Part shown: piece by piece, positions 2,264 through 64,000 of the stretch
Layout of the letters: each line of letters starts with the position of its first letter
Numbering within the stretch: position 1 is the stretch's first letter
Source: Eledone cirrhosa
Lineage: Eukaryota
Length of the DNA: 64,000 nucleotides
Direction: 5' to 3'
Assembly (NCBI GenBank): GCA_964016885.1
Contig: OZ024741.1
Location: 319,858,001-319,922,000, forward strand
Notes under the pieces: model-generated
What the model was told of the DNA's origin: nothing
Seen by the model: the letters and a program-made list of their open reading frames with translations, nothing else
Databases searched by the model: none
Translations under genes and position numbers: made by a program

Positions 2264-2969
2264 TATTTATTCGACATAACTAGTTGATATTTCAACTGTC
2301 TCCGACAACCGATATTGTCCGCAGTGTTGGACTGCGCTTCTTCCTCGCGTGTTATAAATAAGTTATTCCACATGTATATTTGCATTGAGTTTTGATTCTC
2401 AGATTTTAGTGTTTTACAATATCTAAGAAATATATGTGGGCTTCAGCATGATTACAATCCAATGCGTTATGTCAGTAAAACAATAAAATAATGCATTCTA
2501 TTGTTTAATTTTCCCACCGCATGTCAACTCCGTTTGAGCAGACCTGTGATCAAAGGTATTCAAGCCATAACCAGTGAATCCGCACCATTTGTAGTTGCAA
2601 ATGTGACACTGATCTAATGGTCACTACCGGTATTATTGATCGTGAGGCTTGCATTTATTTTTCCTTTTGACTGGAGCACCAATATGTGGATGGGTATGCG
2701 GAACACCAGAATTCATTTCTCCCTCAGTTTAAAAAGAAGGTATGTGCTTCCACGCTCTGGACGATGGAGCAAACACAGTGCAAACACCGTGCTGAATGTT
2801 GGTTAGAACTTCCCCCGATTTTTCTTTCCCTTTTATTTTCTGGATGAATCTGTCGATGAAATAAGGATTTGCGTTTTGTGATATATTTCTTACATGCTTA
2901 TTCCTTTGTCACGATCTGACTGATGATCACTGTTTTTTTTATCATTTGCGGTTATTATTGTCGATATAA

Positions 2970-3152
2970 GGGCGGTGAATTGGCAGTATCGGTAGAGGGT
3001 CGGACATGCTTTCCAGCATAGTTACGTCCCTTTACGATCTGAGTTCAAATCCCGCCGAGGTTGACTTTGCTTTTCATCCTTACGGGGCCGATAAAATAAA
3101 GTACCAGTAATGTACTGAGATAATTGCTGGCCTTGTGCCAAAAGTAGAAACA
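2970..3152 (+). mobile_element. tRNA-derived SINE (Meta-domain-like core)
   Basis: A-box-like TGGCAGTATCGG, B-box GTTCAAATCC and core TTTCATCCTTACGGGGCCGATAAAATAAAGTACCAG. Candidate TSD ATTATTGTCGA. Confidence 0.85.
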
Positions 3153-3387
3153 ATTATTGTCGACGTCGTCGTTGTTGTTGTTGTTGGTGGTAATGCAGCT
3201 CCTATTAATGTTGTATGTGGCTGTATACTCAGATGTCAAATTATGGAAGTATGTATTTATAAGTGTAGCCGTTTATTCAATGTCCTTTTCCATCTGCTTT
3301 TTTTTTTTAACACGGTTGTCATGTTAAACATCATGTGTGTGTGCACTGAGGGTATTCGCCATAGTGGGATCTTCCAAGAAGAAGATA

Positions 3388-3577
<190 letters not shown>

Positions 3578-3851
3578 GCAGAATATACCCCACAACTTAC
3601 CGTGGATATCTCTGTGTGTATATATATACACACACACAGATATCCACGGTAAGTTGTGGGGTATATTCTGCATGAAGAACTCAATGTAATCCATATGTTG
3701 AAAATGTTGTAGGTTAAGATAAATCCCGGAAAACAATTAAACATTAAAAGGAAAACAGAGTCATGATATAAGTTAAAACAATGAAATAAAAAATCAAGTC
3801 ATTAGAGATATACTTCACTGCTTTACGATCGTTTCTAGATGAGATGATAAT

Positions 3852-4034
3852 TGTTTCTACTTTAGGCACACGGCCAGCAATTACCCAGTGCATTACTGGT
3901 ACTTTATTTTATCGACCCCGTAAGGATGAAAGGCAAAGTCAACCTCGGCGGGATTTGAACTCAGATCATAAAGGGACGTAACTATGCTGGAAAATATGGC
4001 GTCCGACCCTCTACCGATACTGCCAATCCACTCA
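3852..4034 (-). mobile_element. Same SINE family with an 18-bp TSD
   Basis: TCTAGATGAGATGATAAT at 3834-3851 and 4035-4052. Confidence 0.9.
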
Positions 4035-4078
4035 TCTAGATGAGATGATAATACAGTGTAGCTATACTTCCTTATTGA

Positions 4079-4170
<92 letters not shown>

Positions 4171-4267
4171 ATAAAACGAAAAATCAGTGATGCATCTGGA
4201 CTCAGTTTATTGTGTTTCAATTGTTTCGTCGGCAGATACCGCCTATGGAAGCATCATAGCTACCATT

Positions 4268-4314
<47 letters not shown>

Positions 4315-4384
4315 ATGGATTTTGTGTGATGTGCTTTTGGCTAGTTTATATCGTTGTATTTAGATTTTGGGTAAATCGTGTAAG

Positions 4385-4436
<52 letters not shown>

Positions 4437-5640
4437 TTTCCTTACACGATTTACCAAAAATCTAAATATAACGATATAAATAGCCAAAAGCACATCACAT
4501 AAAATACAATTACTCAATTAAATTAACCCCTCCCCCATTATACTGATAGCCAGAGGACGAACTTTATCAACCAACAATAACCCTCAATATATATACGTAG
4601 GGTTGAGGCAAAAACATAATACAATATACTTCGATACGTTAACATTTTAGCACACAAAAGAAAGTCAGATAAATTCAAATTAAGACCCTCATAGGAATGA
4701 GAAGCCCTGCCCATTCCAGGATAAATTCGTCGGACAAAGCGGTGCCTTCTTTTATGATATACCTACCCACTCACTTCCTTTGCGCTGATAGAAATCGAGG
4801 TACACCTTTTTACCCACTATGTTTTTGAATTTTGATTCTGTTGCAGTTCACTTTGTTTTTAGTTTTCATTCAGATTTATGTTTCTAGCACTATCCTGTTT
4901 GTGTTTTCCGTTGCATAATCCCCCCCCCCCCCAATATAGCGAACACGACAAGTCTTATGTCTTGCGAGTGTTAAAGGAGTGATTATTCTTTTAAAAAGGC
5001 TAGTCAGTGAATAAAGGATAATGTTACCGCACACGTGAGATTAACGCAGTTTACGTTAAGCTTGAATATTTGCAGGAAGGTTGCACTGCCGTGTGGGATA
5101 TCTGGTAGTAAAGGCTAGAAAACTAGCTAATTCCGAAGAACAGCATGCTGTTTAGATAACAATAAAAGAGACAGATAGATAACACCATGCATCTGGAGAT
5201 CACACGATCTTTGGCGTGGTGTTAATATGATACTGGGACCATGGTACTTTCCCAGACTTATTAACAACGTATGTAAAATGAAACGATCAACGATCCTAAA
5301 TGATTGCATGAAAAGACTCGCTTTGTCTGAATTTTCAGTAGTATTGTATAAACATCATACGAACTGGCTAGTCGAAATAGATAAAGAAAATCGTTAGGCA
5401 TTTCCGTTTATAGAAGAAAAAATTATACTTATACTGAATATATATCGATTAAGCATTGCCTGGTATAGATATTTGATTTTGTTTGATTTTTCTTCTGGAA
5501 GAAATATATTTTATTTAGAATTCGGAAATTAATACACATACAAACATATAAAGACTAAACGAAAACAAACGACGTTCAACAAATAGAAGCGCTGGCTGGA
5601 ATTGATTAATATACATAAGAGAGTATGAGTGTTTTTACCT

Positions 5641-7110
<1,470 letters not shown>

Positions 7111-7543: not shown

Positions 7544-7605
7544 AGTAAGTAAGTTAATTTTATAATTTTCTTATTTTACGTCTCTTATATATATATATAT
7601 ATATA

Positions 7606-7846
7606 TATTTATTAAAGTAACAGATTAAAGTTTAAGCAAAGAATCACTGCTTTCACCCTTAACGGGATCTTCTGAAACTAACAAAGTCAATCTGTGAACG
7701 CAGAAGTAAATATTACAAAAAACGTTGCAACCGGAGGAAGACAGGAAGACGATACTTTGCTCCACGGTTCTTATATATTTGATATATATTTATCCTTATC
7801 GAGCCCTCTTTGGATTTTAGTCTTCAAATTTATTATTATTATTACT
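7606..7846. mobile_element. Short PLE family A insertion (inverted terminal segment + tail) in (TA)n; relatives at 18342-18364, 27360-27475 and 50522-50695
   Basis: The sequence matches the PLE-2 ends (TTATTAAAATAACAGATTAAAGTTTAAGC...). Confidence 0.85.
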
Positions 7847-7949: not shown

Positions 7950-8018
7950 GGTTAAACAAGGTTCAATGAATAAATCAATGAATAAAGTTTCACAATAGAT
8001 TAGAAGCACTCAACATTT

Positions 8019-9377
8019 ATGCTAAATATGGTAAATAGAAAACTGCCGGTGATTACCGGTGGTGTATATAGGGACGATATTTTATTTACTGTTGTCAAGC
8101 ATAGCAATACAGAACTAAATAGGGTTAAGAAAACTATAATTGAATTCTTTAAAAATTACGACCTTAAATTAGAAGTTGAAAGTAGTACCAAAATAGTTAA
8201 TTTCCTTGACGTCACCATTAACTCAGGATTTTATTACCCTTTCCATAAGCCTAATGAAAACTTAAATTACGTTAGCTATTACTCTAATCACCCTAAATCC
8301 ATGAAAAATGCAATAGTCAATAGTGTCCAAAAACGCATAACTAGAATATCCGCCAATAAATCCATTTTTGATGAAAAGGCTGGATACTATAACGAGGCGC
8401 TACGTAAGGCAGGTTATAAAAATAATATTGAATATATGGATAATACTAATTTGAATTATAAACCGGGTAAAAATACGAGTAACATAAATAAACTAGATTC
8501 TAAAAATCATTTAAATATAAATACAAACACCAATGCCGTGAATAAATCTGGTAAAAAAATCAGAACTAAATCAATTATATGGTTTGCTCCTCCCGCGTCT
8601 GTAGCAATCAAAACACCACTAGCAAATCTATTCTTTAAAGCTTTAGATAAAAGTTTCCCCCCAAAATATAAGTACCATTCCATATTCAACAGACACACAA
8701 TTAAGCTTTCTTATTCTACAACTATGAATATAGCCCAGAACATTGCAAAAATAAATAGTAGAATTCTAAATCATAACCAACAAACAATTATGGATAATGA
8801 CTATATTAACAGAAACAATATTAATACTGGGAATAACAATAACATTAATTTAAGCACTATCAATAGAACACTTCCAACTACTAGTAATGTTAATGTCAAT
8901 TGTTCAAATTATAGTAATAACAATAAATCGAAATGTAATTGTAGAAATAGATCAAATTGCCCTCTGCAAAATAATTGTCTGGATAGCAATCTAGTCTATA
9001 AATGCACCGTCAAAGCAAATAACATCACATACAACTATATTGGTGCAACTTCATCGACCTTCAAATTAAGATTTTCGAATCACAAATATTCATTCTCGAA
9101 TCCTAATAGGAAACTTTCGACCTCTTTATCACAACTTATATGGTCATTAAAAGACAAAAATTTAAAATACTCGATTTCTTGGTCTAAGCTGTGTAATGGT
9201 CAAGTCTACTTGTATTCTTCAATATCACCTAACTGCAATCTTTGTACTATGGAGACCCTATTAATAATTACTAATTATGATAACTTAATTAACAAAAAAA
9301 GTGAATTATTCTCAAATTGTTTACATAAAGCTACTTCTACATTCCAAGCCTCACAAAAAGTCAGGAAAAAACATTGA
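8019..9377 (+). CDS. Penelope-like element (Naiad-type) RT C-terminus + GIY-YIG endonuclease, 5'-truncated
   Basis: YRDD, VNFLDVT, YYSNHP, IIWFAPP, Asn-rich linker, CNCRNRSNCPLQNNC, LVYK..YIGAT..FKLRFSNH (GIY-YIG), CNLC..E. Confidence 0.9.
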   Translation: MLNMVNRKLPVITGGVYRDDILFTVVKHSNTELNRVKKTIIEFFKNYDLKLEVESSTKIVNFLDVTINSGFYYPFHKPNENLNYVSYYSNHPKSMKNAIVNSVQKRITRISANKSIFDEKAGYYNEALRKAGYKNNIEYMDNTNLNYKPGKNTSNINKLDSKNHLNINTNTNAVNKSGKKIRTKSIIWFAPPASVAIKTPLANLFFKALDKSFPPKYKYHSIFNRHTIKLSYSTTMNIAQNIAKINSRILNHNQQTIMDNDYINRNNINTGNNNNINLSTINRTLPTTSNVNVNCSNYSNNNKSKCNCRNRSNCPLQNNCLDSNLVYKCTVKANNITYNYIGATSSTFKLRFSNHKYSFSNPNRKLSTSLSQLIWSLKDKNLKYSISWSKLCNGQVYLYSSISPNCNLCTMETLLIITNYDNLINKKSELFSNCLHKATSTFQASQKVRKKH

Positions 9378-9587
9378 ATAAATAAGTTTTGATTTTGACG
9401 TTTATTATCAACTCAGTGCGTAAAACGATACTACAACAGATTATAAACCTTCTAATAATGTTTATTATTTACGATATGATTAATGTTGGATTAAGGGTTC
9501 TACATAAACATATAAATTGTTAACATAATCTTTTGATGAGTATGCATATCATTTGATTGTTTAAATACATTTAATTTTTCGGGGGTT

Positions 9588-10697
9588 TTGTATTTTTAAA
9601 TTATATAGCTTACATATTTGACACTTATATGGACTCGTTAACCATTCATTTATTTATTTTGAATCTCTGTTTTATGATTCAAGAAGTTTGTTTTGTATAT
9701 TTGTAGTATAGATGTCTTACATGATCCTAGTTGACTAAATTTTTTTCCACTTAACTTGATATACCCATTTATAACACTATGAACAGTAATTATATTTATT
9801 ATATTACATATAACTGACTAATATCGTCTTAAACTTTAAACAGTATACTCTTTGTATAAATTTAGACAAATGGGTATATCTAGTTTAATAATATCCTTTT
9901 TAAGTACATTTATATGGCTTTTGGATACTTAAGGGCATTCTAATTTTAACTTTATAATTGTAATTATTTTCTAAATTATATAATGATTATTTTTTAATGT
10001 AATTTTTTAAAATATAATTTAATTTGGATTACCTTCGGGTTGATGGAAATCTTAAGTCTTTTCTTTCTCATGTTTGCAAACACTTTAAATATGATATTAT
10101 ACTATAATATAAATCCTTATAATTTTTTTTTGTATTTTTAAATTATATAGCTTTCATATTTGACACTTATATGGACTCGTAAACCATTCATTTATTTATT
10201 TTGAATCTGTGATTTATGATTCAAGAAGTTTGATTTGTATATGTATAGTATATATGTCTTACATGATCCTAGTTGACTAATTTTTTCTACTTAACTTGAT
10301 GTAAAACTTTATTTATAACACTATTAACAGTAATTATATTTATTATATTATATATAACTGACTAATATCGTCTTAAACATTAAACAGTATACTCTTTGTA
10401 TAAATTGAGACAAATGGGTATATCTAGTTTAATAATATCCTTTTAAAGTACATTTATATGGCTTTTGGATACTTAAGGGCATTCTAATTTTAACTTTATA
10501 ATTGTAATTATTTTCTAAATTATATAATGATTATTTTTTAATATAATTTTTTAATATAACATTTTTTTAATAACATTTTTTAATAGAATTTAATTTGGAT
10601 TACCTTCGGGTTGATGAAAATCTTAAGTCTTTTCTTTCTCATGTTTGCAAACACTTTAAATATGATATTATACTATAATATAATCCTTATAAATTTT
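9588..10697 (+). repeat. Two-copy ~542-560-bp tandem duplication inside the PLE-1 3' UTR
   Basis: TATTTTTAAATTATATAGCTT starts at 9591 and 10133, followed by long colinear identity. Confidence 0.9.
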
Positions 10698-11408
10698 ATA
10701 GTCAGAAATCTTATGTCATTAGATTAATTCACTATTTCTAACTAACATAAGGATTCGAAATTTTAACGGTCATCCGGATGCGCCGGGATATATATATTCG
10801 ATTAATTGACTATTTCTAATTAACTTAAGGATTCGAAAATAAACCGCCATATAACTACACCCAGATATATATTTGATGTTTTGATTGATTGATTATTTCT
10901 AAATAATTTTAGGATTCGAAAATAATCATTCACCAAGCTATGCCCAAATATATATTTATATATATATTTTTACCTCATCTAATTATACGCTGTTTATCCA
11001 TAACAATACAAGTCTCCCTCCCTGTGTTTTATACTATAAAACTTATTTCTTTCTCCTCTTCTCTCTATCCTTAATCTTTTGCTTTCGTGCATATGATAAT
11101 TCTATATTTCTAGTCATTCTCTCTTTCCTCATCTGTCTCTCTCTCCGTTTTTCACTTCCTTTTTCTATAAGATATATTACTTTATTTAAATTATTTAAAT
11201 TTTTAACAGTTATGTAGGCTTATATTATACCAGTAGTTATTTATTATTATGTATCTTTATAAGCTCTCTCACACGCACCCTCTGTATTATATGTATTTTT
11301 TCATGTCTCAATCTTAAGGTATATAAATATTGAGTTTTGTCATAACTAATTCACTGCCATGACTGAATTTTAACCATCAACATAGTCAAGGTATGTCAAG
11401 AATCAACT

Positions 11409-11475
11409 TATTTTATCTGATGAGGACGTACTGTTGAAAATAGCTCAGTACCTCTGAAATATGTATAATAAAATA
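11409..11475 (+). ncRNA. Type I hammerhead ribozyme (PLE-1 pLTR)
   Basis: TATTTTAT-CTGATGA-[GTACTG..CAGTAC stem II]-GAAA-TATGTA-TA-ATAAAATA. Confidence 0.85.
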
Positions 11476-11742
11476 TACTTGATCACATGAATGTCTATAT
11501 TTGTTAATATTTTGAATTAATATATATATATATATATATTAGAAAGTGAGGTTTTTTTTTACAAAATGAAAAATAACCGAGGTGTCCTACATGAGTGAAA
11601 GTATAAGGAAAAAAGATGAAATCGAAAAAGCAACTGGAGTTTTTTTTTTTTAAATATATATTTATTTGGTTCCTTTACCGGTTTTTCGCAGTTCTTCTGC
11701 TTTTCAAAAGTAGAATTGAGATGGAGGGTCTGTGGTTTTTCT

Positions 11743-19947: not shown

Positions 19948-20016
19948 CTGACAGGAAGGTATACGGTGCTGATGACAGCTAATAAGCTAGAAACTAGTTC
20001 ATCGTTCCTTTGTCAG
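19948..20016 (+). ncRNA. Type I hammerhead ribozyme with extended stem I
   Basis: CTGACAGGAAGG..ACGGTG-CTGATGA-[AGCT AATA AGCT]-GAAA-CTAG-TT-CATCGT..CCTTTGTCAG. Confidence 0.8.
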
Positions 20017-21162: not shown

Positions 21163-21169
<7 letters not shown>

Positions 21170-24100
21170 TAAAATAACAGATTACAGTTTAAGCAAAGAA
21201 TCGCTGCTTTTAACCTTAACGGGATTTTCTGAAACAGTCAATCTGTGAACGCAGAAGTGAATATTTCAAAAAAACGTTGCAACCGGAGGAAGACAGGAAG
21301 ACGATACTTTGGTTTGTGGAAACGTTCCCTGGCAAAGAACGGGAAAAAACGAATATAATACGTCATTATTTGGATCGGTGAAAAACAATTACCACTTTTA
21401 TGGTATAAAAGAAGTCGTAGACTAATATTCTATTAGGTGGTTATAGAGACGTTCTCTGGCAATGAACGGAAAAAACGAAGAAAATACGTCATATGTGGAG
21501 CGGGGAGAACAATTGCGCGCAAAGACAAAATCACGTAAATGGTATAACTGAAGTCGTAGACAAGAATTCTAACTAGGAAACCGAATGATTCTCGGCTTTG
21601 GAGTTAAGAATAATGTAAATAAAATACAGAGATAATTGAAATTAAATAAATACATACACGCATCCATAAACGTACATACACAAGCATACGCGAAAACACT
21701 CGCAATAGGTATACAAAAAAAAAAAAAAAACCCCGCACGCACTTACAGAACCCACGCAACGCCTCTACCCGCACGCATACGAATGTATGCACCAAGTACA
21801 CATAAAAATATATATAAAAAAAAAATATATATATATGTGTGTGTGTGTGCGTGTATACATATAATTAAATAAACGTATATAAATAAATAAACACGTATAT
21901 AACAAGCGCACACACATACCTACATGTAAATACACATATGTTCGGAGACATACGTCAACCAAAACACAAAGCACACACACCCTACACACACCTTACATAC
22001 GTACGAACCCGCATACTCACACAAATGCAAAACTCACGTATACACATAACCAAAAGCATATGTACCAGAATATATAATATATACGCCATAACATATACAA
22101 TCAAATATACATACGAGAAAGTATACGTACCTTCGCAAAACATACAGGTAATATATATACTTACCTATACAAATAAGTAGTGGTATAAACATAACATATA
22201 CTTAGCTACCACATCAAGACGTAAAATATCCGCGTATAGTTCGTACTATCCGTTAGGGTATAATGTGGGGCTGTAATACAGGAAAGTTTTGTGCAATTTA
22301 TGTTTACAAGCCGAAATTGCCTCAGATTTTTTGTTTATGATGTGGTCTTTGGCGTAGGGTATTTCCAGGGCCTCAGTGGCGCAGAGGTCACATGGTCTTT
22401 TATTTCCGTTATACGATCTAGCCCTAGCTAGAATCTCCCAGTGTAACTTATATTGGGTGTGGTTGTCTTTTAGACTCCAGATGTAAGCTGAAAGTGACGT
22501 CATATTCCTTCTTAAAGGGTAACGAAAAGAATGGGTATGCATGTAAAGACGCTGCTTGAATCTATTGGCGGTTTACCCTATGGAGGCCCTACGGGACGTG
22601 GGTGTTTCAACCTTACATTTGTAGACAATGTTATTAGAGAGGCATTTCCCGGATAGGGGAAGTCAACCCGATTCCTACAATTACATTTAGTACTAACTAC
22701 AGGGTTGCACGTGTTCCTACGGCTAGGTAGTTTAGCTAAATTTGAAGCTGTGATGTTATGTGCAAGGTTAGGAGTCGTAGAGTAAGAAATTTTAATAGTA
22801 TTTCTATTAAAAATTTTACTATATTTATGTGTAGGGGAGAAATGCTTCATAATAAGCGAGAGAAAGATCTTAGCTAATGGTGTGGCCACCTCCATATTAT
22901 ATGGTGGGTTATACCATATAATGCGTCGGGATCTATTTCTTCTAGGTCTATTCTCGTACTCTGTATATGCTACCTTATCGACAAATCCACTCCGAGCAAG
23001 AGCTTCATTGTCATATGTGGAATGGTTGTTGAAAATATGCTCGTTAGTAGATAGACGGGAAAGCCTCAAAGAAACGTTTCTTACCAGGTACTTGGTTATG
23101 CTGGCAGGATGGTTAGAATGCTTACTTATGTAATTAAGCCTATCATTCGGCTTTCTATACGGGTAATGCAAACTATTCGATAAATTGAGGGTAACGTCGA
23201 GGTAATTAACGACCGAGAGGTTGGCCTCAACCTGTATGGAGAGGTTGAAGCCTTTAAAGAATGCTGTGAGTTCTTTTCTGAACCTGTCGCAAGCACGTGG
23301 GCCGCACTTTGTCATGGTCAAAAGACCATCATCACGGTACGAACCACCGCCCACGTTGGGGAATTCTTCCTTGATAGAGAAAAGAAGGGAAAGGCCGATG
23401 AGATCAGTAACCTCCGCACAATCGCTGGCGCCCATACTCACATCGAATGGGGTACTATTAGATATTTTAATCCAAATAGAGTCGTCGAAATTAATCACGG
23501 ACTTACGGGCATTGAGGATGACATCAACTTCGAAATCCTTAACCACTGTGAGTGTTTTAGCGAAATTGATAGCTCTAAGGAGAAGTGGTAAAGTGGTAGA
23601 GGAGTAGTAATTATTGATGTCGAATTGGATAAAACGGCAATGTTCCTTGTTGCATATGCCGTTGAACCAATCAATCACCGCGAAAGGATTGTTCCACAGT
23701 ACAAGAGGGGCCAAACTTCTAATTTCAGGTATAATTCTATCAAGAATCCTTTTACTAAATCTACCTAAATCGGACTTCGTAGGGTTAAAAAGCCGAATAG
23801 AGGGGTTGTTCGGAAAATTGGATTTGTGATCCTTCAGGGTAAAGTGGGGAGAAATAGGGTCCAGAGGTTCGGTCCGGTCCAGGATGTTGAGATCAGAGGT
23901 GATTTTAAACCCAGCATCGTTGATTTCATTAATGACGCTCCGATTAGTTTTACGGTAATCCTTAGTTACATCATTATGTAGCAGTTGATGGTAAGTACTG
24001 CGTTCCACTTGATATAGATTGCCAGTTTTGTCGGAATGGACGTGCACGGCATTAGAATCCTTAATAGAACGAATTCTATTCTTCAGGTCCTGCTGGAAGG

Positions 24101-24650
24101 AATTGCTCCTATTCCGAAATTTGATACTCCGTATGAGTTCCAAGACATCATTTTTGAAGGGTAGCAATGCTGGGATACTCGGAGGGTTATTATAGGTTTT
24201 AAACCCAAATTTATCCTGTTTGTTGTCTGCTTTTCCCTGATTATCGAAATAAAAGGCACGCCAACGCAACCTTTTAATGAACGCGTCTGTTTTCTGTATC
24301 AGGAGTTTTAGGTATGTTTTCCTGCGTGTAATTTTTTTTTACCGATCCAAATAATGACGTATTATATTCGTTTTTTCCCGTTCTTTGCCAGGGAACGTTT
24401 CCACGAACCAAAGTATCGTCTTCCTGGCTTCCTCCGGTTGCAAGGGTTTTTTTAAATATTCACTTCTGCGTTCACAGATTGACTTTGTTAGTTTCAGAAG
24501 ATCCCATTAAAGGTGAAAGCAGCGATTCTTTGCTTAAACTTTAATCTGTTATTTTAATAAATATTTGCCACACAGTTCTTATATATTTGATATATATTTA
24601 TCCTTATCGAGCCCTCTTTGGATTTTAGTCTTCGAATTTATTATTAATAC
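21163..24650. mobile_element. Penelope-like element PLE-2 (family A): long tailless segment on - (21163-24325) joined to an oppositely oriented terminal repeat + tail on + (24330-24650)
   Basis: 24335-24563 is the reverse complement of 21165-21385. Both outer ends abut (TA)n. Confidence 0.85.
22246..24325 (-). pseudogene. Penelope-like (Naiad-type) RT-GIY-YIG ORF, frameshifted near the Cys motif
   Basis: 563-aa ORF (RWRAFYF, SDKTGNLY, LKDHK, QFDINNYY, VSMGA, YRDDGL, IIWYNPPY, CNCRNR) continues in another frame (SLSAYIWSLK, CDLCATE). Confidence 0.92.
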
Positions 24651-37278: not shown

Positions 37279-37349
37279 ACACTTAAATAAATCTAAGGTA
37301 AAAGAGTAATTGTTCCCTTTTCTTGTGCGCCCTTTTGTCAAATAAAGAA

Positions 37350-37420
<71 letters not shown>

Positions 37421-37421
<1 letters not shown>

Positions 37422-39776
37422 GGAGCCTTCAGGCTGGTGGCCGCATATGCCCCGTCCGGGACACCGCGGCCAGACTTCTTCAAACGTCTAGAGACTTTTC
37501 TGGGAACGTCCCACTCCCTCTGCTGTTAGTGGGGGTCTGGAATGGAATCATAGATGCACGTTGGGACTATGTAGGAGCATGTCCCGATAGAGGGGGGTAT
37601 AACAGCCTCAAACAGTTAATCGGCCGATTTCAACTGGCCGATAGATATCGACTAGATTTTCTAACCGTGCCACTGTGGACGTGCAACAACCACAGCAGGA
37701 CATCTAGATCGTACCTAGATAGGTTTCTAGTAAGAGTTAGTGATAGGGACATGTTAAGCTGTCCACAAATGTTCATGGTTGCCTATTCAGATCACAAACT
37801 AGTGACCTGCTTAGTCAACCTTGATAGAACCCATAGACAGAGACCCGGCTACTGGAGATGAACTTGTCGTTACTGACATGCAAAGCCTACACTAGACGGA
37901 TTAGCACTTTAGTTAAGCAGCACTTGACGGGGGCCATTGTCAACAACAGATGGTGGTACTCTCTCAAGAGGGCAGTCAGATTAGACTCGATAGGTTTTAC
38001 TAAAGAATTAGTGTTAGATAGAAATAAGACCGAAAAGGAACTGGTAGATAAAGGAGAAGAGGCACTTAGGAGGGGCAACGTAGCCAGCGTGCTAGCGACG
38101 AGAACGGCCTTGGACCAGCTCTTCGACGCAAAGCACGAAGGCTGCGTTATCAGGAGCAAAATACGTGCTCTGGGAAACGAGGGAGCCAAAGTTGTTAGCT
38201 GGGCCCGAGTGACAGAGGCGAAAAGTGGCAACAAGTCCACGATTCGGTCTTTGAAGGACCAAGACGGACGCATAATACGTGAGTTGAAGCAGATGTGCGC
38301 AGCCTTTCAGCGGCACTTTGCTCAACTATTCGTGCAGGGCGGCGGGAGGGGTTATGAATTTCAGTCCATACCTCGACGGCCTGCCGCGACTATCGGAAAG
38401 AGAGGCGAAGTTCTGTGAAAGGCCGATTTCGGCCGCTGAGATAGGGGATGCGCTGAGCCAATGCGGCAAACGTAAATCTCCAGGTCTCGACGGTCTACCC
38501 TACAAATTTTACGTAACAATGCCGGACTTGTTCTCCGGTCTCCTGGAAGCGGTCTACTGCAACTGGCAGCATAACGGGAGAATTCCCAGTTCTGTGACCA
38601 AGGGCGTAGTCACGTTAGTCAGGAAGGACGAGAATAAGGAGGATGACATAGGAAACTTCCGGCCCATAACTCTGCTAAACACAGAGTTACAGATTTTGGC
38701 CAAGGTGTTTGCAAAGAGGCTGGTGCTTGTCGTCGAAAACCTGGTGGGAGAAGCGCAGACATGCGCAATCCCGACCAGGTCGATACACGACAACCTCCAC
38801 CTCATGCGATACATCAAAGAGTGGGTAAGGTTTAAAGCCGGCTTCGGTGGGGCCCTGTCAACTTGGATCAGTCTAAGGCCTTCGATAGAGCTGACCATCG
38901 TTACCTGGATGCGGTGCTCGAGGCGGCAGGATTCGGACCCGTGCTCAGGGGCTGGATTGCTGCAATGCACAGCAGTAACATCTGCTCAAGGGTCATGGTG
39001 AACGGCTATCTCTCGGAGCCGTTCAATATCACGCGATCCATCCGACAGGGATGCCCTCTCTCCTCTCTTCTGTACGTACTGACTCTCGAGTCACTACTGC
39101 GGAAGTTGGAGCTATTGCAGGGCATTCCTTTGGAACCGGGACTGCGAAAAGCGGCGTCGGCCTACGCAGCCGACGTGACAGTAATGGACGCCGCCCGTGT
39201 TACTTATGCTTGGAGGAAACATTTCAAATGCTGTTTACGAAGGATCAATTCCTAAACAAAAAAGACGAACTGGTAACTTCAAACGGAGGGCTGGGGATGC
39301 CGTGGCTGACGATGCGCAAACACGCGCTCAGTCTGCGGCACCTGCACGTATTCCTCACCGGACAACCGGTGTGTGCCCCCTCGTCAGGCGATCCTTCCCA
39401 CTACTCGTCTCGCTGACCGAGCTGCAGCCCTGGGTCAAGCAAAGACCGAGGAAAATGGGCGGCTGGCACATAGAATGTGCTCAGGCGCTCACAGTCCTCT
39501 GGCAAACGGACCCGGCGCTCAGTGGAGACTCCACTTCGTCATTCTATAGAGGGTTGGTCCGCAGCAAATGCGACGACGCGCTCGGAGAAACTCTAGGCAT
39601 AGAGGAGGACGAACTGGCCAGTCTGTGCGGTAGGACCTTCCCCCCAGGACCGATGGACAACTTCCAAAAGTCCCTGGCCTGGCAGTGCTACCGAGGAGCT
39701 CTACCAGTTCGAGACAAGCTCTACAGACACGGGCGCCCGGGCAGCGACCCTTCGAAAAAGATCTGTCCGAGATGCG

Positions 39777-39780
<4 letters not shown>
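37421..39780 (+). pseudogene. Decayed, 5'-truncated copy of the same Tx1 family ORF2
   Basis: Frameshifted ORFs 37323-39784 match the 60795-63983 protein (GAFRLVAAY, SYLDRFLVR, SPGLDGLPY, DQSKAFD, CYRGALPVR). The copy starts right after (TATC)n. Confidence 0.93.
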
Positions 39781-41481
<1,701 letters not shown>

Positions 41482-41494
41482 TATATATATATAT

Positions 41495-43100
41495 ACGATA
41501 AATTAACGGAGCCATAGACTCTCGCCATTCGCCGTAAATAATGTGCTCAAAGGAGAGGAAATCCTGAGCTCTTTAAAATACAATATATTGAAAAGGTAAC
41601 ACACTAGAGAGAGATACAGTGCGCTATCAATAAAACAGGGAAAAACCACCAGTGTATGGAATCTATAACCTATGAAAGGCAGAGTAGACACACGATAATT
41701 AAAAATATAAATTAAAGCGTAAATAAATACCTCTATAACTATATAACACACGTACAAATCCAAAGAGATCTGTTTCGCCAGTAAGTTGTTGACAGAAACG
41801 ATATAACCACGGTTCGTCACCGTGCGTAAGGCTATACATTTCAGACAACACTAAGAGAATGTTAAAGTGACTGTCCAGCTACACGTGGGAGAGAGAAGTC
41901 ACAGCGTGTTTAAGGTCAGTGAACCAGTGGCCTCTGAGGGACGAGCTGCTAGAAAGGGCAGACCAAAACACCCAGAGAAGTGTACTGAACCAAACAGAGA
42001 GAGAGGAAAGACTATAATAAGGAGCAAAATATGATGATAAATTAACGGAACTATAGACGACTCTCGCCATTACCTGTAAATAATGTGCTCAAATGAGAGG
42101 ATATCCTGAGCTCTTTAAAATACAATATGTTGAAAAGGTAACACACTAGAGAGAGATACAGTGCGCTATCAATACAACAGGGAAAAACCACCAGTTTATG
42201 GAATATATAAACTATGAAAGGCAGAGTAGACACACGATAATTAAAAATATAAATTAAAACGTAAATAAATACCTCTATAACTATATAACACACGTACAAT
42301 TCCAAAGAGGTCTAATTCGACAGTAAGTTGTTGACAGAAATGAAATAACCCCGGTTCGTCAGCGTGCGTAAGGCTATACATTTCAGACAACACTAAGAGA
42401 ATGTTAAAGTGACTGTCCAGCTACACATGGGAGAGAGAAGTCATAGCGTGTTTAAGGGCAGTGAACCAGTGACCTCTAGGGGACGAGCTGCTAGAAAGGG
42501 CTTCCCAAAACCACTCAGAGAAGTGTGCTCAACCAAACAGAGAGAGAGAGAGGGAAGACTGTTATAAGGAGCGAAATATTACGATAAATTAACGGAGCCA
42601 TAGACTCTCGCCATTCGCCGTAAATAATGTGCTCAAAGGAGAGGAAATCCTGAGATCTTTAAAATACAATATGTTGAAAAGGTAACACACTAGAGAGAGA
42701 TACAGTGCGCTATCAATAAAACAGGGAAAAACCACCAGTTTATGGAATCTATAACCTATGAAAGGCAGAGTAGACACACGATAATTAAAAATATAAATTA
42801 AAGCCTAAATAAATACCTCTATAACTATATAACACACGTTCAAATCCAAAGTGATCTGTTTCGCCAGTAAGTTGTTGACAGAAATGAAATAACCCCGGTT
42901 CGTCAGCGTGTGTAAGGCTATACATTTCAGACAATACTAAGAGAATATTAAAGTGACTGTCCAGCTACATGTGGGAGTGAGAAGTCACAGCGTGTTTAAG
43001 GGCACTGAACCAGTGACCTCTGAGGGACGAGCTGCTAAAAAGGGCAGCCCAAAACCACTCACAGAAGTGTGCTCAACCAAACAGAGAAGGAGGAAAAACT
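41495..43100 (-). repeat. Three tandem ~543-bp ORF-less units, each with a type I hammerhead (retrozyme-like array) between (TA)n tracts
   Basis: Units start at ~41495, ~42034 and 42581 (GATAAATTAACGGA). Hammerheads lie at 41746-41827, 42288-42369 and 42832-42913. Confidence 0.85.
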
Positions 43101-43111
43101 TATATATACTG

Positions 43112-43194
<83 letters not shown>

Positions 43195-48427: not shown

Positions 48428-48495
48428 TATTTTATCTGATGAGAACGCAAATATTCCATGATGATATTTGTTTTTGAAATGCGCATAATAAAATA
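48428..48495 (+). ncRNA. Type I hammerhead ribozyme in a PLE-type terminal repeat (~47690-48533)
   Basis: TATTTTAT-CTGATGA-[CAAATAT..ATATTTG]-GAAA-TGCGCA-TA-ATAAAATA, with palindromic stem III. Confidence 0.85.
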
Positions 48496-55307: not shown

Positions 55308-56142
55308 CGAGGTGTGTCAGAAAAGTTCCAGGACTGATATCACAAAAGATTTATTTCAAACCCAAGCTTCACACTAAGAGTTTTCTCCTTCAAAGTAATC
55401 CCCCTGGAGTCTAATGCACTTTTCCATCCTTTTCTGCTAGGTCATCACGGCCTTTTTGATGTCCACATCTTCAAAACTGGTCCCCTCGGGGTCGTACTCG
55501 AAGATCCATGACTCATCACCGGTGATGACTGTCCCTAGCAAGTCTCGTTCAGTTTCAAGACGCTCGAGGATGTCCTGGCACATTTGCATGCGTCGACCCT
55601 TCTGGTCATCGTTCAGCAGTTTTGGCACCGTCTTCACGCAGATTTTTCGCATGTCCAAATCTTCAGTGAGAATCTTCCAGACGCTGTCCCGATTCATGCC
55701 CAGCTCATTTGCCATCAGTCGAACAGTCAGCCGACGATCGCTACGCACCATCTGCCTGACGCGCTCAACGTTGAGCTCAGTCCTCGTTGTTGATGGCATT
55801 CCGGTCCTGGGGTCATCTTGCACCACTCAAAAACACGTGAGCGTGACATCGTCTCATCTCCATACATTTGCTGCAGCAATCTCAGTGCTTCTGACGGAGT
55901 TTTCCCCAACCGTACCAGAAACTTCAAGTTTGTTCGTTGCTCTGTGCTCATTCCTTGACGACCTGAAACAGAGGAGATGTATATAAAATTATGAAGAAAA
56001 AAGTTTGATTGCTGCAGAGAGCTAAGATTACAGTTACACACTCCAGGCGGATTACTTTGAAGGAGAAAACTCTTTGTGTGAAGTTTGGGTTTGAAATAAA
56101 TTTTTTGTGACATCAGTCCTGGAACTTTTCTGACACACCTCG
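55308..56142 (-). mobile_element. Internally deleted mariner (Tc1/mariner) transposon with ~100-bp inverted ends
   Basis: The ends are TA-CGAGGTGTGTCAGAAAAGTTCCAGGACT and its reverse complement. Transposase remnants are EQRTNLKFLVRLGK..VFEW, DDPRTG, VPKLL and ITGDESWIFEYDPE, followed by a jump to the C-terminus. Confidence 0.92.
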
Positions 56143-56902
56143 ATTCTCTTTGAGATGAGTTTGAATTATTTTTCCCACATCTTACGTTAACTATTTTTTC
56201 CCATTTTGACGCTATAGTCACTTATATATTATGGAGTGCTGTTGGCTTTTCGCTGCAGTGTTTTCTATACCTTTCATTTATATATTTATACTCGGATTTT
56301 TTTTCCTAGAGTGCTTAAATTATTTGTGACTAATCCCGGTTTTTTTTAATAAAAAACTGCAATATTGCTTTTTGCTGAACTCCTTATTGTAGAGTTTTTT
56401 TGGAATGTTTTTGACTGTTGTTTCTTGTAAACAAACATTCGTCTCATTCTGACGTCGCTAGCCATGTCTTTCCTCATGTGCCTTTTTCATAATCACGCAT
56501 GATGGTGAACTAGCCTGTTTTAAAATTCCCTTTTTGGCATATTAATCTGTGAGAATCCTGATTATCGAGTTGAGCTCTGCTGAGGATTGAATTCCAACCG
56601 TGACCATCTCCACTGAAAGTTTTCATGAAATAGTCTTTAAGACTATACAGAGCATTTGAAGTTTTTCCAAATTGAAGGATGAGTATTTTAGACTTTATTT
56701 TATCATGAGTTAAAGCTCTATTGATTTTTCTCTGGATTTCACTAAATTCTGTGGATGAATTTATATCCTGATTCTCTTTGAGATGAGTTTGAATTATTTT
56801 TCCCACATCTTACGTTAACTATTTTTCCCATTTTGACGCTATAGTCACTTATATATTATGGAGTGCTGTTGGCTTTTCGCTGCAGTGTTTTCTATACCTT
56901 TC

Positions 56903-60533: not shown

Positions 60534-63500
60534 TTCTTTTATTTGCCACTAGGGCATCAAAAGTGGGACAAGTACAAAGGGGGGAGTTTACACAAAAAGG
60601 CGTCCTCAATAAGGAGGAGGCAATAACAAAATATAAAAATAAAATAAGATATAACAAAAAATAAAATTTTTAACAAAATCCTCAATAGAGAGGAGGCGCC
60701 TTGGGGGGTCGCACACACCCCCGAAAAAAGTGTGCAACCCTTCTCCTCAGGAGCACAGAGAAGGGGTGCTCCCTTGGTCTTTCATCTTCCTCACCTATAG
60801 TCTGATGTAGAGTGAAGGCCCATTCACACGGGCCATTCTCGCCACTTTCACCCATCTTTCATAGAAACGGCTGGGGTGCAGCACCTCTCTCTCCATCCTG
60901 ATCCTTCTTCCGAAATGATATCGGAAGAAACGGACCAGTTGTTGGCCAGAGAGAAAGGTGCCCGACCTCAGTCCTTTCAGACGCGTCCACCATACAACCT
61001 CTTTCGCCATGGCTATTACGCACAGAAACACCGCCTCTGCTTCATCTTTGAAGGGGGGAGGCGGCTTGATCATTACAATAGACTCGGTGGTCAACCGGAT
61101 CGGTCCCACCCTTGACAGCAGTTGTTCGACATAGCCCCACAGATCGGCTACGCCCGAGCAGTGTACTAATGCGTGTGCAACGGTTTCCTCGTCGCACACG
61201 CATCTGGGACAGATCTTTTTGGCGGGGTCCCTACCCGGGCGCCCGTGTCTGTAGAGCCTTTCTCGAACGGGTAAAGCCCCTCGGTAGCACTGCCAGGCCA
61301 GGGACTTCTGGAAGTTGTCCATAGGTCCCGGGCTGAATGTCCTACCGAAAAGGCTGGCCAGTTCGTCCTCCTCCATGTCTAGGGCTTCTCCGAGGGCGTC
61401 GTCGCACCTGCTGCGTACCAGCCCTCTATAGAATGTTGCGGTGGAGTCTCCACTGATAACCGGATCCGCCTGCCAGAGGGCGGTGAGCGCCTGGGCACAC
61501 TCAGTGTGCCAGGCGCCCAGTTTTCTCGGTCTTTGCTTGACCCAGGATTGCAGCTCGGTGAGTGAGACGAGTCTGGGAAAGGTTCGTCTCACAAACGAGG
61601 CCCACACCGGTTGTCCGGTGAGGAATACGTAGAGGTGCCGTAGCCTTAATGCGTGTTTACGCATCATTAGCCACGGCATCCCCAGCCCTCCTTTCGAAGG
61701 GTGTTGACAGCAGATGGATCTCCTCACCATAGGAGCCCGCCTCTTCCAAAGGAATTGGAAGAGCGCGCGCTCCATCTTGGTGAGGGTTTCCCTTGGGCAG
61801 GGCACTACGGTCAGGCGGTAGTAGATGACGGACGCTATGTAGGTGTTCGCCACCTCCGCCCGACCTTTCAGGGATAGTTTGCAACTGGCCCACTTCTGGG
61901 TCAGTGCAAACACTCTGTTCGTAACCTCCGCCCAGTTTTTCTCCACCTGGAGGTCCGGTCCGAACCAGACCCCGAGCAACTTCACCGGGCCCTCCGTCCA
62001 GCGTCCGACGACGCTATCGGAGGGCATCGGTCTGCCCCTCCACGTGCCGAGTTGCAAACCGATCGACTTGTCCCGGTTCAGCTTAGCCCCTGTGAACTTT
62101 TCGTACTCCTCCAGTAAGGTGCCGACCGCCTCGATTTCGGAGGCCGTCGACACCATTACTGTCACGTCATCGGCGTAGGCCGACACCGCTTTCCGCAATC
62201 CCGGTTCCAAAGGGATGCCCTGCAACAACTCCAACTTCCGCAGTAGTGGCTCGAGAGTCAATACATACAGAAGGGAGGAGAGAGGGCACCCTTGTCGGAT
62301 GGACCGCGCGATTTTGAACGGCTCCGAGAGGTAGCCGTTCACCTTGACCCTAGAGCAGATGCGGCTGCTGTGCATAGCAGTGATCCAGCCCCTGAAAACG
62401 GGTCCGAAGCCTGCCGCCGCTAGCACCGCATCCAGGTAACCATGGTCGACCCTATCGAACGCCTTAGATTGATCCAAGTTGATCAGAGCCCCACCAAAGC
62501 CGGGTTCGTTCCCAACCCTCTCTATGATGTATCGCATGAGGTGGAGGTTGTCATGGATGGACCTGGACGGGATAGCGCATGTCTGCGCATCTCCCACCAG
62601 GTTGCCCACGACAAGCGCCAACCTCTTTGCTAGCACCTTGGCCAAAATCTGTAACTCTGTATTTAGCAGTGTTATGGGCCTGAAGTTACTTATTTCGTCC
62701 CCCTTGTTCTCGTCCTTCCTCACTAGCGTGACTACGCCCTTGGTCACAGTACAGGGAATTCTCCCGTTCTGTTGCCAGTTGCAGTAGACCGCCTCGAGGA
62801 GATCGGGGAACAAGTCCGGCATAGCTAGATATAATTCGTAAGGAAGACCATCGAGACCCGGGGATTTGCGTTTGCCGCATTGGCTCAGCACGTCCTCTAT
62901 CTCAGCGGCCGAAATCGGCTCCTCGCAGGACTTCGCCTCCCTGTCCGAGAGGCGCGGCAGGCCGTCGAGGTATGGACCGAAGTCCACGTTCCCAACCGGC
63001 TCCCCGCCCCTCCCGAACAGTCGGGCAAAGTGCCTTTGAAAGGCCTCACACATCTGCTTAGGCTCAAGAATCGCCCGTCCATCCAGGTCTCGCAAAGACC
63101 GGATGGTGGATTTAGTTCCACTGTTGGCCTCTGTCACGCGGGCCCAGCTAACAGCTTTGGTCCCCTCGTTCCCTAGAGCACGTATTTTACTTCGGACAAC
63201 GCAGCCTTCGTGCTTCGCGTCGAAAAACTGGCTCAAAGCCGTTCTCGACGCTAGCACTCTGGCCACGTCGCCGCTTCTAATTGCCTCTTCTACTCTATCT
63301 ATTAGCTCCCTTTCCTTCCTATTCCTATCCGCAGCTAGAACCTTACTAAATTCTATCGAGACTACTCTAATCTCTCTCTTTAGAGATACCCACCACCTGC
63401 TGTTGACGATCGCTCCAGTCAACCGTTCCTTAACTAACGTACTAATCCGATTCCTGTAGGCTCTACTTGCCGGCAAGGACAAGTTGAGCTTCCAGTAACC

Positions 63501-64000
63501 GGGGCCCTGTCTATGAGTTCTGTCAAGGTTGACCATGCAGGTCACTAATTTGTGGTCTGAATAGCCAACAATGCGCATTTTTGGACAACTTAAAAAGTCC
63601 TTATCCTTAATTCTAACTAAGAACCTATCTAGGTACGACCTAGATGATCCGCTACGATTTGCCCAAGTCCAGGTTGGCGCAGTCGGAAAATCTAGTCGAT
63701 ATCTATCGGCCAGGTCAAATCGACCGATTAACCCTTTGAGGCTATTACACCCCTCTCTATCGGGGCAGGCCCCTACGTAGTCCCAGCGTGCATCTAGGAT
63801 ACCATTCCAGTCCCCCACTAATAGCAAGGAGCGGGACGTCCCTAGAAAAGTCTCCAGACGATGGAAGAAGTCCGGCCGCATTGACCCGAAAGGGCCGTAG
63901 GCGGCTACCAACCTAAACGCTCCGCCTTTACCACTGCCAAGGTCCAGAACCACTAGTCGACCCTCCGGGTCCAAATGTACCATCTGTGTTGCGAGACCCA
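60531..64000 (-). mobile_element. Tx1-like non-LTR retrotransposon including ~260-bp 3' UTR ending in (TATC)n
   Basis: ORF2 is followed on the minus strand by a UTR ending ...GGCAAATAAAAGAAAT, directly abutting (ATCT)n. Confidence 0.9.
60795..63983 (-). CDS. Tx1/L1-clade LINE ORF2 (APE endonuclease + RT + C-terminal Cys/His knuckle), uninterrupted; 5' end runs off the window
   Basis: 1062-aa ORF with APE motifs (GDWN, SYLDRF, YSDH), RT motifs (SPGLDG, NFRPITLLN, DQSKAFD, IRQGCPLS, YADD) and CPRC..ETVAHALVHC. The frame stays open to base 64000. Confidence 0.95.
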   Translation of the reverse strand: MVHLDPEGRLVVLDLGSGKGGAFRLVAAYGPFGSMRPDFFHRLETFLGTSRSLLLVGDWNGILDARWDYVGACPDREGCNSLKGLIGRFDLADRYRLDFPTAPTWTWANRSGSSRSYLDRFLVRIKDKDFLSCPKMRIVGYSDHKLVTCMVNLDRTHRQGPGYWKLNLSLPASRAYRNRISTLVKERLTGAIVNSRWWVSLKREIRVVSIEFSKVLAADRNRKERELIDRVEEAIRSGDVARVLASRTALSQFFDAKHEGCVVRSKIRALGNEGTKAVSWARVTEANSGTKSTIRSLRDLDGRAILEPKQMCEAFQRHFARLFGRGGEPVGNVDFGPYLDGLPRLSDREAKSCEEPISAAEIEDVLSQCGKRKSPGLDGLPYELYLAMPDLFPDLLEAVYCNWQQNGRIPCTVTKGVVTLVRKDENKGDEISNFRPITLLNTELQILAKVLAKRLALVVGNLVGDAQTCAIPSRSIHDNLHLMRYIIERVGNEPGFGGALINLDQSKAFDRVDHGYLDAVLAAAGFGPVFRGWITAMHSSRICSRVKVNGYLSEPFKIARSIRQGCPLSSLLYVLTLEPLLRKLELLQGIPLEPGLRKAVSAYADDVTVMVSTASEIEAVGTLLEEYEKFTGAKLNRDKSIGLQLGTWRGRPMPSDSVVGRWTEGPVKLLGVWFGPDLQVEKNWAEVTNRVFALTQKWASCKLSLKGRAEVANTYIASVIYYRLTVVPCPRETLTKMERALFQFLWKRRAPMVRRSICCQHPSKGGLGMPWLMMRKHALRLRHLYVFLTGQPVWASFVRRTFPRLVSLTELQSWVKQRPRKLGAWHTECAQALTALWQADPVISGDSTATFYRGLVRSRCDDALGEALDMEEDELASLFGRTFSPGPMDNFQKSLAWQCYRGALPVRERLYRHGRPGRDPAKKICPRCVCDEETVAHALVHCSGVADLWGYVEQLLSRVGPIRLTTESIVMIKPPPPFKDEAEAVFLCVIAMAKEVVWWTRLKGLRSGTFLSGQQLVRFFRYHFGRRIRMEREVLHPSRFYERWVKVARMARVNGPSLYIRL

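Follow-up and report, generated by a model that had tools for sequence, protein, structure and literature searches.

A dispersed 540-nt hammerhead family in Eledone cirrhosa with insertion ends and hairpins like those of Hydra-clade PLEs

The hammerhead array that we analysed in a 64,000-nt stretch of Eledone cirrhosa DNA (hereafter, the window) is best explained, with a probability of roughly 0.8, as an old insertion of a dispersed 540-nt hammerhead family. It was likely copied into (TA)n by a Hydra-clade RT-endonuclease from template RNA that was continuous over the unit junction and the predicted cut site, and that was slightly more likely circular than not. The family is a non-LTR-retrozyme-like, non-autonomous PLE. 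The retrozyme category and the link between retrozymes and PLEs are already published, and the locus itself is a dead copy.

Results

A decayed trimer between TA tracts

The array spans 41495-43116 on the minus strand and is a head-to-tail trimer of a non-coding unit, with the 542 and 544 nt spacing that the sequence-only reading had given and that our position measurements reproduced. The units differ pairwise by 5.4-7.2% and are arranged as follows.

41481..41494, strand not applicable: (TA)7, the target at the long end
41495..42030, minus strand: unit 1, the 3'-most, unit positions 1-537; its 3' end meets (TA)7 at the long end
42031..42577, minus strand: unit 2, complete, with seamless 540-to-1 junctions
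42578..43116, minus strand: unit 3, 5'-truncated at about position 12-20 into (TA)47
43110..43194, strand not applicable: (TA)n on the truncated 5' side of the array

TA tracts flank both sides, as had been claimed: going outward from the array on the left, (TA)7 is followed by a MITE-like piece of 90 nt and that by (TA)73, and the right flank contains (TA)47. The MITE-like element (41391-41480) adjoins the array between TA tracts and has imperfect TIRs (TCCCCAAAA..). No ORF of at least 150 aa was found in the array, and the longest ATG ORF on the circularised majority unit has 104 aa, in agreement with the earlier view that no credible ORF is present. The 3' end of the array, 41495, corresponds to unit position 537 and lies 8 nt short of a bulged hairpin, GCTCC..GGTTGAGCAC, through which the internal junctions read, confirming a further observation of the sequence-only reading. 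The rightmost unit, which is 5'-truncated, lacks the 5' arm of its hairpin.

Each unit contains one type I hammerhead motif.

41746..41827, minus strand: motif 1, core broken by C3>G, predicted cut between 41753 and 41752
42288..42369, minus strand: motif 2, core broken by A15.1>U
42832..42913, minus strand: motif 3, cleavage triplet broken by U16.1>A

The minus-strand hammerhead consensus proposed earlier holds as the family majority, ACACACG-CTGANGA-stem II-GAAA-CAGATC..GATTTG-TA-CGTGTGT, but the window does not contain the complete hammerheads then described: all three have a core lesion, and stem II is atypical. The array is a decayed, dead copy, and the locus could no longer self-cleave. 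Rfam reported no hammerhead at the gathering threshold in the window, where the three copies scanned are all damaged.

A dispersed family with sister subfamilies

Exact matches to a 14-nt hammerhead core numbered 1,345 genome-wide, compared with six for the reversed pattern, which excludes both a chance occurrence and a unit existing only at this locus. Blast comparisons with the unit produced at least 94 matches, from 40 of 2,432 candidates. We examined 48 loci picked by Blast and 60 chosen, mostly along the chromosomes in sequence, among the 100 core matches listed first; of these 60, 55 belonged to the family, four to sister subfamilies and one was unrelated. The sampled loci favour long or hammerhead-containing copies, and the counts of ends below omit two loci duplicating the window and the four sister loci. 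The family is dispersed, with many copies, low GC and no LTR-type flanks, and its 540-nt unit is non-coding and tandem, with one type I hammerhead each. The genome-wide search with the unit thus bore out, in the sampled loci, the proposal of a retrozyme-like, dispersed, (TA)n-flanked family without linkage to an ORF. Sister subfamilies B and C, of 526-540 nt, are 76-81% identical to subfamily A and to one another, and close head-to-tail at the same point as A.

These comparisons bear on whether the unit is a mere pseudo-LTR of an ORF-bearing PLE outside our sample, which we regard as improbable. About 100 of more than 1,300 copies were examined, pieces of Hydra ORFs flank about two dozen loci and Xenopus retrozymes resemble pLTRs, all of which would suit that explanation. 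However, in the junction lines inspected by eye, the sequence upstream of a full unit is position 540 of the unit itself, and the hairpin at the unit start is followed by more unit and never by an ORF. Moreover, the sister subfamilies retain closure at 526-540 nt despite their 76-81% identity, and the ORF closest to a unit (L137) is separated from it by TA and lies on the other strand.

Several loci showed further arrangements. L061 contains two adjacent arrays of about seven units (2397-6249), whose cross-shared variants suggest later duplication or conversion, and L140 contains three spaced partial copies, with near-identical breakpoints in two. A 45-nt similarity to positions 37-81 of subfamily B (E 0.006), at about 8250-8292 of the oriented locus L187, is perhaps a more distant relative of the unit.

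Two fixed insertion ends joined to (TA)n

Among 181 arms from 103 loci, 148 end at unit positions 530-540 or 449-460, and TA-rich DNA adjoins 139 of these 148 ends, indicating two fixed 3' end sites that are joined to (TA)n and separated by about 86 nt. A long end is combined with a short one in 36 of 48 two-armed insertions; like ends occur in two and an unclassified end in ten, so that long and short ends are paired in 36 of the 38 that are classifiable. Inversion joints mostly show overlaps of a few bases. Family insertions display 5' truncation, partial tandems, an inverted 5' copy and a tail between the two ends; tandem, inverted copy and tail together are the PLE insertion pattern. Tails measured alike are 88 nt in the retrozyme, 88 in Hydra-B and 98 in Hydra-A. 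For a purified Poseidon element, the accessible text of PMC11167929 describes the tail as the stretch bounded by two internal RT start sites.

The 5' ends concentrate at positions 361-420 (41 of 148 arms), where the hazard is three to four times baseline; this pile-up could be a pause or a transcription start. The two arms of an insertion showed no correlation of the kind that a common RNA 5' end would produce, with six of 60 pairs within 12 nt compared with 5.3 expected.

The insertion ends precede hairpins common to Hydra-clade PLEs

Each insertion end is located 3-8 nt before a bulged GCTC..TTGAGC hairpin. The sequence-only reading counted one bulged hairpin per unit, which was mistaken; there are two, one after each end.

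41543..41570, also 42085-42112 and 42629-42656, minus strand: bulged hairpin S, GCTCAGG..CCTTTGAGCAC, 4-8 nt 3' of the short end (41578)
42525..42572, minus strand: bulged hairpin L, GCTCC..GGTTGAGCAC, starting 5 nt past position 540 and common to Hydra PLE 5' ends
41982-42025, minus strand: hairpin L, mutated copy
43069-43078, minus strand: hairpin L, 3' arm only

Hairpin L starts 3 nt past the last base shared with the target in the retrozyme and in Hydra-B alike; its 15-nt stem is identical and placed identically in Hydra-B, and the similarity extends no further. Across 1.03 Mb of retrieved sequence, a hairpin regular expression matched 93 times, with 81 matches in the family and 12 at Hydra 5' ends, and not once in the reversed sequence. 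Genome-wide, the short-loop form had 1,168 matches and the control three, and the long-loop form 930 and 191, respectively. A Hydra-like ORF followed the hairpin on the same strand in 28 of the 30 first-listed loci. The hairpin precedes the ORF in at least four coding PLE families, three of which share only 37-42% protein identity with the fourth. Full-length copies of two coding families contain, in order, a hammerhead, short end, hairpin, long end, hairpin and ORF; the retrozyme matches this order but lacks the ORF. By eye, similar hairpins occur in published coral and sea-cucumber Hydra consensus sequences.

The coding partners have the RT first and the GIY-YIG domain last, with RWR, DKT and CxCx5C motifs (read in P0001). 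As defined in the accessible text of PMC8557442, the Hydra clade has a C-terminal GIY-YIG, RWK-like, DKT, CxCx5C and CxxC/CxH motifs, a hammerhead and (TA)n. Because their motifs match this definition, we would assign the coding partners to the Hydra clade and not to Naiads, which have an N-terminal endonuclease and DKA, lack canonical hammerheads and are described as long-inactive remnants in cephalopods. The coding PLEs of the window and genome also resemble Hydra-1_Obim by eye; in Pfam, the two window PLE proteins had no match above cut-off.

The sequence-only reading had ascribed the array to a Naiad-type RT. Naiads likewise target (TA)n, insert in tandem and inverted arrangements and occur in octopus genomes. 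However, the families found to share the hairpin carry Hydra-like ORFs, with the RT before GIY-YIG, and the missing hammerheads and remnant state of Naiads in cephalopods also count against them, so that a Naiad mobiliser now appears highly improbable.

No extended DNA similarity of the unit was detected to 20 Hydra-A/B loci or to 30 hairpin loci, and a single partner family was sought without success among the sampled coding families. The presence of the hairpin in at least four divergent families indicates that it would mark a clade and not a single partner. The shared hairpin is therefore common to coding PLEs, as had been anticipated, but calling it direct evidence of the borrowed machinery was an overstatement; it is a pointer at the level of the clade.

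Other elements in the window and sampled loci

Non-coding hammerhead tandems of a second family, repeating about every 421 nt, occur at L096:3515-6001, in the flanks of L111, L119, L102 and L134, and near 19969 of the window; they had no match to the GCTC..TGAG hairpin pattern. At 8004-11520 (plus strand), the window also contains a Hydra-type PLE that is 5'-truncated. Its hammerhead, at 11417-11470, has a short stem III, and its 3' UTR contains an internal duplication, about 545 nt long, whose sequence is not related to that of the retrozyme unit. In another Hydra-type family (window 21165-24650, minus strand, and 7590-7845; L169-L178), CAGAAGA replaces CUGANGA in a hammerhead-like motif in all copies seen, some of which have intact 713-aa frames; it is either a fixed core variant or a lost ribozyme. 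A hammerhead at 48436-48479 (plus strand) is like that of a third Hydra-type family, with a TTAAC-loop hairpin (L190, L207). From their motifs, we take 37346-39784 (plus strand) and 61197-63826 to be LINE-like RT remnants forming an inverted pair, and 55441-56221 to be a mariner-like remnant.

Conservation of the hammerhead

An intactness filter was passed by 53 of 90 Blast-picked genomic copies. According to Li et al. 2026 (10.64898/2026.07.22.740005), in the part available, an 'active' retrozyme has two consecutive intact hammerheads; none of the three window motifs qualifies, and such pairs are present in five of 21 multi-unit family loci. Stem II opens with A10.1.C11.1, after which come 2-4 bp and a loop of 27 nt. 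We considered GTCA/TGGC, located after a 20-nt insert, as an alternative stem II, but dropped it because it is absent from subfamily B.

Position N7 takes all four bases among 30 units, while the core stays fixed. The core is identical across the majorities of the three subfamilies, only 76-81% alike, and in D copies too; A10.1.C11.1 is invariant in the subfamily majorities, and stem III of subfamily B shows compensated changes. Sense strands fold better than shuffles, with z values of -3.5, -4.6 and -5.5 (25 shuffles each), compared with -1.3 (25 shuffles) for the antisense of subfamily A. The fixed core and the structured sense strand suggest that the ribozyme is under selection. Half of the copies were chosen by the core pattern, and we therefore left core versus non-core decay out of the evidence. 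RNA-editing scars were not apparent, the sense strand having no A>G excess (0.0063, versus 0.0071 for T>C).

In predicted energy, the hammerhead fold exceeds the local minimum by 3-7 kcal/mol, and stem II has a probability of at most 0.01 in predicted ensembles, even without the strand directly upstream of the ribozyme. Stem II being so poorly predicted, cleavage of the hammerhead is not assured.

A predicted helix between loop II and the upstream strand

Each unit of the array contains a strand that could pair with loop II.

41830..41849, also 42372-42391 and 42916-42935, minus strand: upstream strand complementary to hammerhead loop II, a predicted lock or pseudoknot

Among all 20-nt windows outside the ribozyme, the best partner of loop II is the 20 nt directly upstream of stem I, with best pairings of -17.0, -18.6 and -17.8 kcal/mol in subfamilies A, B and C, respectively. 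Native duplexes average -16 to -17.5 kcal/mol (84, 9, 8 and 5 copies), as opposed to about -8 kcal/mol for A/B swaps and about -7 for shuffles. Partner swaps were used for the proximal part of the helix because the alignment register differs per subfamily. For the distal 13 pairs, the covariation score, although inflated by relatedness, exceeds all 500 shuffles; column counts show two pairs changed on both sides, and two-sided changes are fewer than the shuffle mean.

Inclusion of the flank led to loss of stem I in predicted ensembles. Predictions for nascent RNA contain the lock in all three subfamilies, A, B and C, and in the whole-unit ensemble it is weak in subfamily C (0.16) as compared with 0.69 and 0.94. 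Our predictions thus suggest a co-evolving upstream/loop II helix of about 20 bp that would hold the ribozyme off. We read it as a lock because, from helix geometry, the 6-nt link to stem II should be unable to span about 20 bp; the alternative, by analogy with PMC3088659 in the part available, would be a shorter, activating pseudoknot. The literature searched, with subscription journals thinly covered, contained no such lock, no cephalopod retrozyme and no Hydra hairpin, and the helix is apparently new.

The template crosses the predicted cut site and the unit junction

The predicted cut site is at position 279 and coincides with neither insertion end. It is crossed by 112 of 148 arms, with termination there at baseline (0.0018 per nt), which excludes a cut linear monomer as the template. 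Hairpin L is at the unit start, so that a circle or a multimer is needed to place it 3' of the long end. Within an insertion, the units of both arms, also when inverted, have a subfamily haplotype in common (mismatch at diagnostic sites is 0.12 within and 0.28 between insertions), as a circle predicts.

A realistic, though less probable, explanation retains the Hydra machinery and the hairpins but has as template an uncut linear transcript of 1.2-4 units, made from genomic tandems with a start at about 375-410; the ribozyme would be locked or act late, and no circle would be copied. The raised 5'-end hazard at 361-420, the lock predicted in nascent RNA and the mosaic sharing of variants among tandem units would fit such a transcript, as would in vitro data, in the accessible text of PMC11167929, in which uncut RNA is the main substrate of a purified PLE and the ribozyme is dispensable. 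Conversely, some arms (e.g. L102, L105 and L139) pass position 390 a second time, and the arms of one insertion end independently. In addition, there are several haplotypes, each with its own multimers, no long source array was found among the 40 of 2,898 candidates scored, and conservation of the core would be left unexplained.

The distribution of rare variants also bears on the origin of the trimer. No private variant is common to all three window units, which have 45 singletons and six variants in two of the three units, in three incompatible patterns. Neighbours in the same orientation share 2.03 rare variants per kb and opposite arms 0.51, a fourfold difference that points either to a mixed multimer template or to exchange at a later time. 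Insertion of a 1.x-mer that later became a trimer by unequal crossing-over, after the satellite-birth model in the available part of Li et al. 2026 (10.64898/2026.07.22.740005), would account for this excess and for the six variants in two of three window units; we nevertheless consider it unlikely, given the lack of a private variant in all three and the multimers on both arms, ending at fixed sites. The window units are 5.4-7.2% apart, compared with about 4.6% for co-born opposite arms, a similarity indicating that any duplication would have occurred near insertion time.

We return, then, to copying from an RNA continuous over the junction and the cut site. A rolling-circle origin is compatible with the data, although unproven and not separable from copying of an uncut multimer, and only three of 78 position-ordered arms passed the cut site twice. 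On balance, we lean slightly towards a circle as the template.

Discussion

We infer from the sequence comparisons that a Hydra protein binds the bulged hairpin, and it would then nick (TA)n on both strands. With the help of AT microhomology of 2-4 nt, cDNA would begin 3-8 nt upstream of the respective hairpin, and the two cDNAs would join head-to-head or truncate. Upstream of these steps, tandem transcripts would self-cleave and be ligated to a 540-nt circle, in which the upstream/loop II helix would stop re-cutting during laps of the RT. This joint step, of self-cleavage, ligation and a helix guarding the circle, is a weaker part of the reading, to which we give only a little better than even odds.

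More tentatively, and with odds clearly against it, the family may be a viroid-like 540-nt lineage of sufficient age to have diverged into subfamilies 20-25% apart, and pared down to three modules: twin hairpins that would recruit any Hydra-clade telomerase-like RT and set two starts, a hammerhead, and a co-evolving anti-ribozyme helix that would preserve the circle for copying from both sides of a (TA)n break. If this three-module reading is true, it would define the signal that a PLE RT recognises in cis and show that an animal retrozyme contains a switch of its own.

In the accessible parts of PMC7229834, 10.64898/2026.07.22.740005, PMC8557442 and PMC11167929, retrozyme movement and the RNA signal of the Penelope-type RT are proposed and not demonstrated. 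As a substrate, the family is small and non-coding, its two start sites are mapped, and it offers candidates for both a recruiting hairpin and a ribozyme lock; the candidate hairpin is common to Hydra elements with intact ORFs in the E. cirrhosa genome.

Comparison with known systems

Metazoan non-LTR retrozymes are known, with RNA circles and a proposed mobilisation by PLEs (PMC7229834 and 10.64898/2026.07.22.740005, in the parts available). The Eledone family resembles them in its non-coding head-to-tail units with one type I hammerhead each and a GC content of 38-40%, and in its self-paired sense strand, thousands of dispersed copies and co-occurrence with PLEs. Its unit, however, is 540 nt, compared with 170-400 nt in PMC7229834 and 51-972 nt in 10.64898/2026.07.22.740005, and self-pairing is predicted to block its ribozyme; in most circles of metazoan retrozymes, by contrast, the ribozyme is predicted to be left free. 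The two fixed ends and the shared hairpin, which tie the family to one PLE clade, were not found in the accessible parts of those two sources.

The predicted pairing of loop II with the stem I flank recalls pseudoknotted hammerheads (PMC3088659), in which the tested pseudoknots, in the part available, have 5-6 bp compared with about 20 bp here; from geometry, the longer helix, which takes part of the stem II strand, should not be able to form together with stem II. Plant LTR retrozymes and viroids, according to the accessible text of PMC7229834, similarly have complementary sequence able to block the hammerhead.

With Hydra-clade PLEs, as described in the available text of PMC8557442, the family shares (TA)n targets, the hammerhead, the partial tandem with an inverted 5' copy and a tail, and the order of hammerhead, short end, hairpin, long end and hairpin. 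Unlike them, it has neither an ORF nor extended DNA similarity to the sampled coding families; its tail is about 86-88 nt, compared with the 30-40 bp described for PLEs, and its cut site is 175 nt before the short end, compared with about 30-45 nt in two coding Hydra families. Poseidon PAc of Anolis, in the accessible part of PMC11167929, likewise has two internal RT start sites bounding the tail and AT-rich targets, needs RNA 3' of the start sites and has a hammerhead that is inactive alone, the last two features being predicted for the retrozyme.
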